Origin: a virus
Strand: one strand, 5' to 3'
Virus genome (UHGV): UHGV-1367746
DNA length: 39,184 nucleotides
This document shows positions 15,901-18,357 of the stretch, one piece after another. Position numbers and translations under genes: made by a program. How positions within the stretch are numbered: the first letter of the stretch is position 1; each line of letters opens with the position of its first letter. Below the pieces are notes generated by a model. It ran no database searches. It was not told where the DNA came from and saw nothing but the letters and a program-made list of their open reading frames with translations.

Positions 15901-16128
15901 TTAAATCATACTCATTAGGACGTATCCTTCAGCGATGTCACCAACGTCAGCAATGTGGACAACCTTACGCGCTACCTGTTGTCCAGTATACCCGTTGTCC
16001 CATTCATTCAGGATAAGCCAATCGCCAACCTTAAAGTCCCGGTCGTTAAGTCTCAGCTCTGCTGTCTTTAGACCTAGCTGTACCGGACCAAAGTGCTGGC
16101 GGTGAATCTTCAGGTTGTGACTAGCCAT
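15901..16128 (-). CDS. DUF3850 / ASCH-like small protein (accessory gene between tail tubular A and B)
   Basis: 75 aa; pattern H.LKI....F..V..G.KT.E.R.NDRDF.VGD.L.L.E.D...YTG matches my recollection of DUF3850 proteins; no T7 counterpart at this locus. Confidence 0.6.
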   Translation of the reverse strand: MASHNLKIHRQHFGPVQLGLKTAELRLNDRDFKVGDWLILNEWDNGYTGQQVARKVVHIADVGDIAEGYVLMSMI

Positions 16129-16696: not shown

Positions 16697-17128
16697 CTAA
16701 TCTCCTTTAAGGTAGCGTATAGCGTTTGCAATATGCTCTGGATTCTCACTTAGGAGTCCTATGGCACAGTTGCACCTCTGACAAAGCACGCCTCGTATTT
16801 CACCAGTGGAGTGACTGTGGTCTACAGCCAGTGTTCTACCAGATGTCTCTACTGTTCGCGAGCAAATCTCACAGGCCCAACCACGAGACTCCATAAGGGA
16901 GAACCACTCGTCATATGTCATACCGAACGAGCTTTTAAGTTGGTAGCCTTTAAGTCTTTCCGCTGAGTATCGTGATTTGTTGGGAGCTTCCTCTCGTATG
17001 GCAGCCTGCCTTGAGTTCTCGCACTCTCGGCATCTGCTTCTGTATTTCTGTGTGCCCTTACATGTCCTGCCATTTGGCGTGAAAGACCCCAAGTCCTTCT
17101 CCGTGTGGCATCCTATACATACCTTCAT
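16697..17128 (-). CDS. HNH homing endonuclease (free-standing), immediately downstream of Tphi-like terminator
   Basis: HNH motif DHSHSTGEIRGVLCQRCNCAIG plus N-terminal Cys cluster; start placed at ATG 17128 with GGAGG 4 nt upstream because the longer ORF (to 17182) would run through the terminator hairpin. Confidence 0.8.
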   Translation of the reverse strand: MKVCIGCHTEKDLGSFTPNGRTCKGTQKYRSRCRECENSRQAAIREEAPNKSRYSAERLKGYQLKSSFGMTYDEWFSLMESRGWACEICSRTVETSGRTLAVDHSHSTGEIRGVLCQRCNCAIGLLSENPEHIANAIRYLKGD

Positions 17129-17138
17129 TAATCCTCCG

Positions 17139-17176
17139 AAAAAAAACCCCTCAAGCACCCGAAGGCACCCAAGGGG
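17139..17176 (-). terminator. Tphi-like terminator for phage RNAP (also intrinsic-terminator-like)
   Basis: Minus RNA CCCCUUGGGUGCC-UUCG-GGUGCUUGAGGGG followed by U8; closely resembles T7 Tphi (AACCCCTTGGGGCCTCTAAACGGGTCTTGAGGGGTTTTTTG) and sits right after the 10B stop. Confidence 0.8.
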
Positions 17177-17182
17177 TTTCAA

Positions 17183-18357
17183 TTAGTTGTTGGACTCAGC
17201 CAGTTTAGCGGCCCTGTTCGCAGCACGAGTACGCGCAGCTTTCTGTTGAGGAGTTAGAGTCTCCTCTTCAGGTACAGCCGCTACAGTAGCGACGTTAGGT
17301 TGGCTAAAGGCGCTTACATCGCTGGGCTGAAAACCAGTGCGCCCGCCGCTTCAGGACGCAGACCACCGTGACCCATAGCGTACTTACCAACAATCAGGTC
17401 ACCCTGAGCATCGACATCACGGTCACGTTCCAGCGCCAAGTCACGCAGTTTCACAGTACCCACAGCAGAACGGTGAGAGAACAGGCCCACAACGTTGTCA
17501 ATAGCAACTTTAACGTCGCCAGCAGTAGTCGCTGGGAATGCGTGTTTCTGACCGGAAGCGATAGTGATACCATCGGCACCACGGGTCTCACCAGCACCAC
17601 CCTGTACCAGATGCGGAACTTCAACAACAACGAAGCCCATCACGTTACGGATGTTACCAGTCTCTGGGTCAATCAGCGCAGCATAGTTAGCAGCGTTAGG
17701 CATCAGAGCCGCGAGGATTGCAGAGTAGTTGTCCGGTGTGGTGTAGAAGTAACGGTCGCCAGCAGGAACGTAGTTGGAGGTCAGCTTCGCACGAGCAATG
17801 GTCAGTTGACCGATGATTGCTTCGCCCAGTTTAGCCGGGGTGTCGAGGTCAGCTTTCTTACCAACTTGCAGTACGGAAGCAGTTCCAAGACCAGCGATGT
17901 TCTCGTTGGATGCAGCTGGGAGGTTACACAGGGTAGCCATTTCAGCCAGAACCGCACCATCAGCAGCGATAGCCAAAGCTTCACCCAACTGGTTGGAATA
18001 CTCACCAGCCACGTCGTAGTGGTTCATCGCGTCTTCAATGTCGAAAATCATCACATCGGCAGTCAGCAGACCATCAATGGTAATCACCTTCTCAGTATGT
18101 TTGATACCTTTACGCTTATCGGACAGTCGCTCACCCGGAGCCAGATACACACCAGAGGTGCGACCCATGACCGGGAACTGAGCAGACTTACCGTTCTGAA
18201 TGGTACGGACAATATGCTTGTCAGCAGTTACAGAGCGGCGAGTGAATGCGGTCAGGACTTCACCAGCAAATACCTTCAGGAACAACGCCAGAGCGTCGGA
18301 ACTGGATTTGCCTTTACCTTGGTCTGTACCAATTTTCTGACCCGGAACGTTTGCCAT
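17183..18357 (-). CDS. Minor capsid protein 10B produced by -1 ribosomal frameshift near the 3' end of 10A (predicted)
   Basis: Slippery G GUU UUC at 17329-17335 as in T7 gene 10; the -1 frame stays open for 48 codons to TAA at 17183-17185 just before the terminator. Confidence 0.55.
17314..18357 (-). CDS. Major capsid protein 10A
   Basis: 347 aa; very high similarity to T7 gp10A (LALFLKVF.GEVLTAF, KSAQFPV.GRT, KHTEKVITIDGLLTADV, DIEDAMNHYDV, YSAILAALMPNAANYAALIDPE.G.IRNVMGF.VVEVPHL, HRSAVGTVKLRDLALER, KYAMGHGGLRPEAAGA). Confidence 0.95.
   Translation of the reverse strand: MANVPGQKIGTDQGKGKSSSDALALFLKVFAGEVLTAFTRRSVTADKHIVRTIQNGKSAQFPVMGRTSGVYLAPGERLSDKRKGIKHTEKVITIDGLLTADVMIFDIEDAMNHYDVAGEYSNQLGEALAIAADGAVLAEMATLCNLPAASNENIAGLGTASVLQVGKKADLDTPAKLGEAIIGQLTIARAKLTSNYVPAGDRYFYTTPDNYSAILAALMPNAANYAALIDPETGNIRNVMGFVVVEVPHLVQGGAGETRGADGITIASGQKHAFPATTAGDVKVAIDNVVGLFSHRSAVGTVKLRDLALERDRDVDAQGDLIVGKYAMGHGGLRPEAAGALVFSPAM

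Follow-up and report, generated by a model that had tools for sequence, protein, structure and literature searches.

The capsid gene of the phage genome studied here very probably carries a T7-type gene 10 programmed -1 ribosomal frameshift of a Kayfunavirus-type phage, located at a G GUU UUC heptamer close to the 3' end of the gene. The 10A/10B frameshift of T7 is a textbook case; the feature described below is a member of that T7-type class, and frameshifting has already been described within the same genus. For K1F, which is the genus's type species, the -1 frameshift has been described and stable fluorescent phages were obtained only from g10b::gfp (PMC6277420), and adhesins have been displayed on K1F virions via a frameshift-dependent g10b fusion (PMC13370021). 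A first-pass annotation of the DNA had proposed a conserved -1 frameshift for minor capsid protein 10B, a proposal that is borne out by comparison with T7 and K1F, by the homology of the tail, by selection acting on it and by the co-occurrence of site and tail among relatives.

Genome context and host gene

The analysis covered one stretch of viral DNA of 39,184 nucleotides (UHGV-1367746), referred to here as the window. Judged by its sequence, the window is a Kayfunavirus-type genome (Autographiviridae, Studiervirinae; T7 supergroup) in reverse orientation, and it is ~95% identical over ~90% of 25 kb to TM1, EFA-1, yong1, phiHAO1-1 and Penshu1. Features of the gene 10 region are collected in Table 1.

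Table 1. Features of the gene 10 region of the window.
Feature	Position	Strand	Details
Major capsid protein, gene 10A-like	17314..18357	minus	347 aa, C-terminus ..GALVFSPAM*; from the ORF list plus domain and structure matches
Slippery heptamer G GUU UUC	17329..17335	minus	0-frame register ctG GTT TTC (Val342-Phe343)
10A stop codon TAA	17314..17316	minus	Fifth codon past the heptamer
Predicted -1 extension	17183..17329	minus	48 sense codons plus TAA at 17185..17183
Best-conserved tail block	17208..17255	minus	16 codons, LTPQQKAARTRAANRA; in 19/19 short-type loci, at least 5 lineages
Tphi-like terminator, intrinsic or phage-RNAP	17139..17180	minus	17-bp stem 17180..17143, UUCG loop
Terminator sub-elements	U8 17146..17139; CCCC 17176..17173	minus	CCCC within stem

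The gene that hosts the site encodes a T7-like major capsid protein, as in the T7-type gene 10 frameshift: the 347-aa ORF matched PF21703 in Pfam (Gp10A-like, E=6e-105) and, among PDB chains, 9vvq_I (E=8e-216) and T7 10A (2xvr, E=5e-146). None of the solved PDB chains extends into a 10B tail.

Two small ORFs in the neighborhood were also noted. Unlike T7, the window carries an endonuclease VII-type gene after the terminator. This 143-aa endonuclease VII / His-Me finger ORF (16697..17128, minus strand; Pfam PF02945, E=1.6e-19; PHROG endonuclease VII) begins directly after the terminator U run, between genes 10 and 11, and is preceded by the ribosome-binding site GGAGGA at 17137..17132. No full-length copy of it was returned by megablast against 50,697 phage records, and Penshu1 holds at this position only a two-piece remnant, annotated as a 123-nt hypothetical gene; the ORF looks like a rare homing-endonuclease insertion. 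Between the tail tubular genes 11 and 12 lies a 75-aa DUF3850/ASCH-domain ORF (15901..16128, minus strand), which is kept in Penshu1, P7124 and PRF-SP2 as a "hypothetical protein".

Slip site and reading frames

At the site the plus strand reads GAAAACC, giving GGTTTTC on the minus strand, and this heptamer occurs as a single copy in the 39-kb window when both strands are scanned. The 0 frame continues as ctG GTT TTC AGC CCA GCG ATG TAA, with four sense codons ahead of the stop. T7 gene 10, which is the same Gp10A-like capsid gene, carries an identical heptamer that is read in an identical register (gtG GTT TTC aaa gtg gag TAA). Three codons stand between it and the 10A stop as against four in the window, so that in both the in-register G GUU UUC lies a handful of codons ahead of that stop. 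After a slip the next codon would start at 17329, and the -1 frame encodes the 48-residue tail QPSDVSAFSQPNVATVAAVPEEETLTPQQKAARTRAANRAAKLAESNN, uninterrupted until the TAA that precedes the terminator. There is no independent start in this frame, as no ATG, GTG or TTG occurs between the preceding stop and the TAA. The predicted 10B consists of 10A residues 1-343 plus 48, or 391 aa, which is also the length of the 10B join annotated in Penshu1. The distance from the heptamer to the -1 stop is 144 nt, 128 nt of it beyond the 10A stop.

Most of the particulars in the first-pass annotation proved exact. It had placed the heptamer near the end of the capsid gene without giving a strand, and the heptamer is present there, on the minus strand. 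The likeness to the T7 gene 10 shift site that it had drawn is an identity, register included, the T7 site being G_GUU_UUC (PMC5009743). The counts of 48 open -1 codons and of a 0-frame stop at the fifth codon are correct, the 25-residue -1 frame peptide agrees letter for letter, and the TAA said to lie directly before the Tphi-like hairpin is separated from it by 2 nt. Two numbers need correction: the extended product was put at roughly 387 aa where 343+48 residues give 391, and a stop-free stretch quoted as 138 nt agrees with neither the 144-nt nor the 128-nt distance.

In the proposed mechanism, most ribosomes would read Val342 (GUU), Phe343 (UUC), Ser, Pro, Ala and Met and terminate, yielding the 347-aa 10A. 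A minority would slip by -1 with GUU in the P site and UUC in the A site, tRNA-Phe re-pairing from UUC to UUU and tRNA-Val, partially, from GUU to GGU. These shifted ribosomes would go on to read CAG CCC AGC and so forth, adding 48 codons to give a 391-aa minor capsid protein 10B that would co-assemble into the head alongside 10A. Note that the slip mechanism, the efficiency of ~10% (T7) and the incorporation into virions (K1F) are taken from the literature. In T7, ~10% of gene 10 translations frameshift (PMC1635266), and we infer a similar rate of shifting in this phage.

Two other kinds of frameshift cassette were considered and rejected. Phages of the T3 type resemble the window in that the homologous capsid gene has a -1 frameshift a few codons short of its end and yields a C-terminally extended minor species, but their slip site differs (C CCA AAG in T3; ACA AAG G or GAA AAG G in metagenomic relatives) and their tail is Big_2 Ig-like and ~85-90 aa long, whereas the tail in the window matches no Pfam domain and lacks the length needed for an Ig fold. 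T3-type tails match Big_2 at E=3e-18, and a Pfam search with the 391-aa product of the window returned nothing beyond residue 342. For a dnaX-type cassette (A AAA AAG with a stable stem-loop 5-6 nt downstream), the heptamer differs, the 69 nt downstream have a folding z-score of +0.17 and no Rfam frameshift element was found.

Chance statistics of the window alone

From base composition, the probability of 48 open codons is 0.09-0.16. An empirical estimate came from the mechanical ORF listing of the window: among ORFs of 100 aa or more, 19% keep the -1 frame open for 48 codons or longer beyond their end. The assertion in the first-pass annotation that the open -1 frame is unlikely by chance was therefore overstated (P 0.09-0.19). 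Given the conserved Leu-Val-Phe, a rough estimate from codon choice puts the occurrence of the heptamer by chance at ~6%. Taken by itself, then, the window argues against chance, but weakly. Open-frame statistics, which are not significant alone, were dropped as the main argument; because an open -1 frame is not rare by chance, the case rests on comparison with relatives.

Homology of the tail and selection on it

The -1 peptide of the window is 64% identical to the T7 10B tail over 36 aligned positions (BLASTP, E=5e-11). Both are short, homologous, non-Ig tails containing EETLTPxQxAARTRAANxAxK; the T7 tail is 56 aa long as against 48 aa in the window, and the N-terminal half has diverged. Within Kayfunavirus, the 48-codon tail of gene 10b (K1F, EcoDS1, CR44b, Penshu1) has ~92-94% amino acid identity to that of the window, with few residue changes (D4, A7, V23), and over the whole interval from heptamer to terminator, tail stop included, the K1F and Penshu1 sequences align with the window free of gaps. 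The Penshu1 and CR44b records carry a joined 10B CDS, and the EcoDS1 record marks a "slippery sequence" and a "region of similarity to gp10B". Altogether, ~79 deposited phages encode a tail that covers 80% or more of the 48 residues; identities range from 80 to 99% and are mostly 90-95%. In PHROGs, the tail matches phrog_12582 and phrog_20538, both described as "head protein".

Tails of seven lineages, including Kayfunavirus, T7, Berlinvirus P694, Pectobacterium ZXLW2, Klebsiella RCIP0083 and Erwinia pEp_SNUABM_10, were aligned and have 16 invariant columns, chiefly LTPxQxAAxTRAxNxAxK. Codon variation was then scored in the best-conserved block (Table 1), using all 19 short-tail loci at hand, which reduce to 11 distinct DNA versions; the search pattern excluded none. 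Of the third codon positions in the block 15/16 vary, compared with six of the first and four of the second positions. Scored in the -1 frame, pairwise codon comparisons give 420 synonymous versus 82 non-synonymous differences, and the same changes read in the other two frames give synonymous/non-synonymous counts of 27/443 and 23/429, more than 90% non-synonymous. The extension is thus both homologous to the 10B tail and evolving as protein in the -1 frame, as in the T7-type class. This pattern of substitution, the mark of a translated peptide and not of an RNA or DNA element, indicates that purifying selection on the 10B tail is confined to the -1 frame. The close Kayfunavirus relatives taken alone have 13, 7 and 8 variable columns at codon positions 3, 1 and 2, respectively; these are too few substitutions for a codon-position test to decide, and the cross-genus block was used instead.

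Co-occurrence of site and tail in relatives

Capsid-gene ends were compared after collapsing 78 IMG/VR loci plus GenBank loci to unique site-and-tail combinations, giving 72 distinct ends. Where GTT TTY is present in register, the -1 frame stays open for 40 codons or more in 34/36 distinct loci; where it is not, the frame is open in 13/36 and closed in 23/36 (Fisher p=2e-7, a value that overstates independence since the loci are related). Most of these 13 pair another slip site (ACA AAG G or GAA AAG G) with a Big_2 tail, and 3 of the open loci represent chance read-through across the terminator. Tail-less relatives encode the same Val-Phe as GTC TTC or GTA TTC, a synonymous change that abolishes the U run, and relatives with GTC or GTA as the Val codon mostly have no extension. 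The first base of the heptamer is G, C or A among relatives, the constant core being GUU UUC; every Kayfunavirus-like locus has the heptamer unchanged.

Slip site and extension are thus kept or lost together in relatives, as in the T7-type class, with two interrupted tails. In L009 (2523-2570; a contig of 39,300 bp) the heptamer is intact and the tail is broken by a 1-nt deletion (GTAAGC to GTAGC); in Yep-phi (L087, 466-530) the heptamer is likewise intact and a stop stands at tail codon 20. A further locus, L012, has an intact heptamer and a long tail with an internal frameshift. The first-pass annotation had held that stops in the -1 frame of relatives would speak against it; among relatives with in-register GTT TTY, the 34/36 open frames are in its favor and the interruptions in L009 and Yep-phi are not. 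Because 10B is reported to be non-essential in T7 and T3 (PMC5592923, PMC3276506), the interrupted tails of L009, Yep-phi and L012 are compatible with the occasional loss of a dispensable product, or with sequencing error.

Terminator and candidate stimulators

As in T7, the tail stop of the window falls just before a Tphi-type terminator containing CCCC. The terminator hairpin has a folding energy of -25.2 kcal/mol (z=-4.2), with no shuffle equally stable, and it aligns with T7 Tphi and with the K1F and Penshu1 terminators; the homologous hairpin is annotated as a terminator in EcoDS1 and Penshu1. The CCCC of the T7 terminator, more than 200 nt downstream of the site, has been reported to contribute to frameshifting (PMC5009743). 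In the window the CCCC lies in the terminator stem ~153 nt from the site, and its presence proves nothing because tail-less relatives carry the same type of hairpin, which makes it non-discriminating.

Nearer to the site, the 69 nt past the heptamer fold no better than shuffles (z=+0.17), so that no canonical proximal stimulator is visible, and the same 69-nt region of close relatives has no excess folding either (z=+0.67, +0.78 and -0.23). An 8-bp stem, AGCGAUGU/ACGUCGCU, beginning 5 nt past the heptamer was rejected as a demonstrated stimulator, since it is mismatched in K1F and lies in a region with z~0; it tolerates wobble-type changes in relatives. An Rfam scan returned no frameshift family, the only matches being sub-threshold chance matches on the terminator hairpin.

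T7 differs in this respect, having a predicted hairpin ~20 nt after the site (z=-2.3) where the lineage of the window has z~0. Hairpins 20-30 nt downstream are likewise found in other lineages, with z=-4.65 for P694, -3.24 for L037, -2.88 for ZXLW2 and -2.32 for T7. Strong hairpins of differing sequence were observed at 20-30 nt after the heptamer in L083-L085, L037, L008, L024 and L004 (Berlinvirus-type, T7 and others). The hairpin following the heptamer in these other lineages may be a lineage-specific frameshift stimulator that the lineage of the window does without.

Alternative explanations

It is highly improbable that this phage makes 10A alone, the heptamer and the open -1 frame having arisen by chance or surviving as a nonfunctional remnant. 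Such a reading can draw on the chance estimates given above (P ~0.09-0.19 for the open frame; ~6% for the heptamer given Leu-Val-Phe), on the dispensability of 10B in T7 and T3, on the two relatives with interrupted tails and on the lack of significant local stimulatory structure, but it does not accommodate the strong purifying selection on the tail in the -1 frame across genera, nor a heptamer that is invariant in Kayfunavirus-like loci when tail-less relatives use GTC or GTA, and the near-identical sequence of K1F yields a -1 product that is incorporated into virions. The downstream conservation might instead belong to a nucleotide-level element (mRNA 3' structure, terminator context, or a distal signal for frameshifting or stability) and not to a peptide. 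The region does lie directly upstream of the terminator, the fold of a 216-nt region is somewhat more stable than those of shuffled sequences (z=-2.9), and frameshifting in T7 is affected by a distal terminator element (PMC5009743). However, the z-score of the 216-nt region is largely due to the terminator hairpin, the proximal 69 nt having z~0, and an RNA element would not yield a 3-periodic pattern in which 15/16 third positions vary, amino acids are kept and the other frames are more than 90% non-synonymous. We regard this explanation as having an extremely small probability.

A comparably slight chance attaches to a transcriptional origin of the -1 product, with the phage RNA polymerase slipping along the T run. 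Productive polymerase-slippage sites usually need seven or more bases, and the site, although it contains a homopolymeric U4/T4 run, is short for productive slippage at T4. Frameshifted products of this origin are known in some bacterial and phage genes, but T7 gene 10 is classed as ribosomal X_XXY_YYZ frameshifting (PMC5009743 for both), and the dependence on register that relatives display is a feature of tRNA re-pairing and not of slippage by a polymerase. Finally, the extension could be a separate gene, small and independently translated (a "head protein" or a "putative minor capsid protein"), as ZXLW2 and pEp_SNUABM_10 annotate stand-alone ORFs of 40-50 aa over the homologous region and PHROGs holds two such small families. 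This independent small-ORF reading was rejected, its probability being next to nil, because the -1 frame of the window is without any start codon up to the TAA; independent initiation would also leave the conserved frame relation to the heptamer unexplained. With programmed -1 ribosomal frameshifting as the preferred explanation, the stand-alone "head protein" ORFs and phrog_12582 and phrog_20538 most probably represent 10B tails that were annotated in error as separate genes.

Tail diversity, annotation and significance

Other tails were encountered behind the same type of site. In close Kayfunavirus relatives (L010, L013-L022, L068, L072 and L073, from ~2524, and GenBank H54-H60), GGTTTTC is followed by a different -1 tail of ~94 aa, of the form ..VGTSLKVDFPELSDVTDWSLL..YSRRTNSLYFKA..GYDGSPVRSFNVSFTN, which has no match in Pfam and does not resemble the Big_2 tail of T3. 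From these sequences, the segment between slip site and terminator in Kayfunavirus behaves as an exchangeable cassette, apparently holding either the 48-aa T7-type tail or the unrelated ~94-aa tail. Two metagenomic T7-like capsid genes, L036 (~1250 onward) and L052 (~965 onward), combine GGTTTTT with a -1 extension of 475 aa, in which an N-terminal Big_2 domain (E=1.5e-10) is followed by ~390 aa without a Pfam match; this extension is a putative, unusually large frameshift-added capsid decoration.

Most relatives annotate 10A only, and some label the 10A ORF "minor capsid protein". This label is given to the 347-aa 10A ORF in PQ133619, OM867676, many PRF-SP/STP-SP Salmonella phages and PDB 9vvq, and in genome records labelled in this way the true frameshift product is unannotated. 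The genome described here should carry a 10B CDS, complement join 18357..17329 + 17329..17183, 391 aa. The scientific gain from this assignment is small, as the same site has been annotated and engineered in K1F-like phages; if the phage were to be engineered, the locus would be a natural low-copy display site.

We know of no established function for the T7 10B tail. The basic C-terminal block LTPxQKAARTRAANxAxK is under purifying selection in at least 5 Studiervirinae lineages, and the linker that precedes it drifts freely. That conserved basic block, together with the exchange of cassettes, raises the tentative and still rather doubtful suggestion that the 10B tail is not a passive appendage and may have a specific binding role. 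Across the relatives, the tabulation of slip codons against tails indicates that the synonymous choice of Val-Phe codons tracks the presence of the frameshift product.
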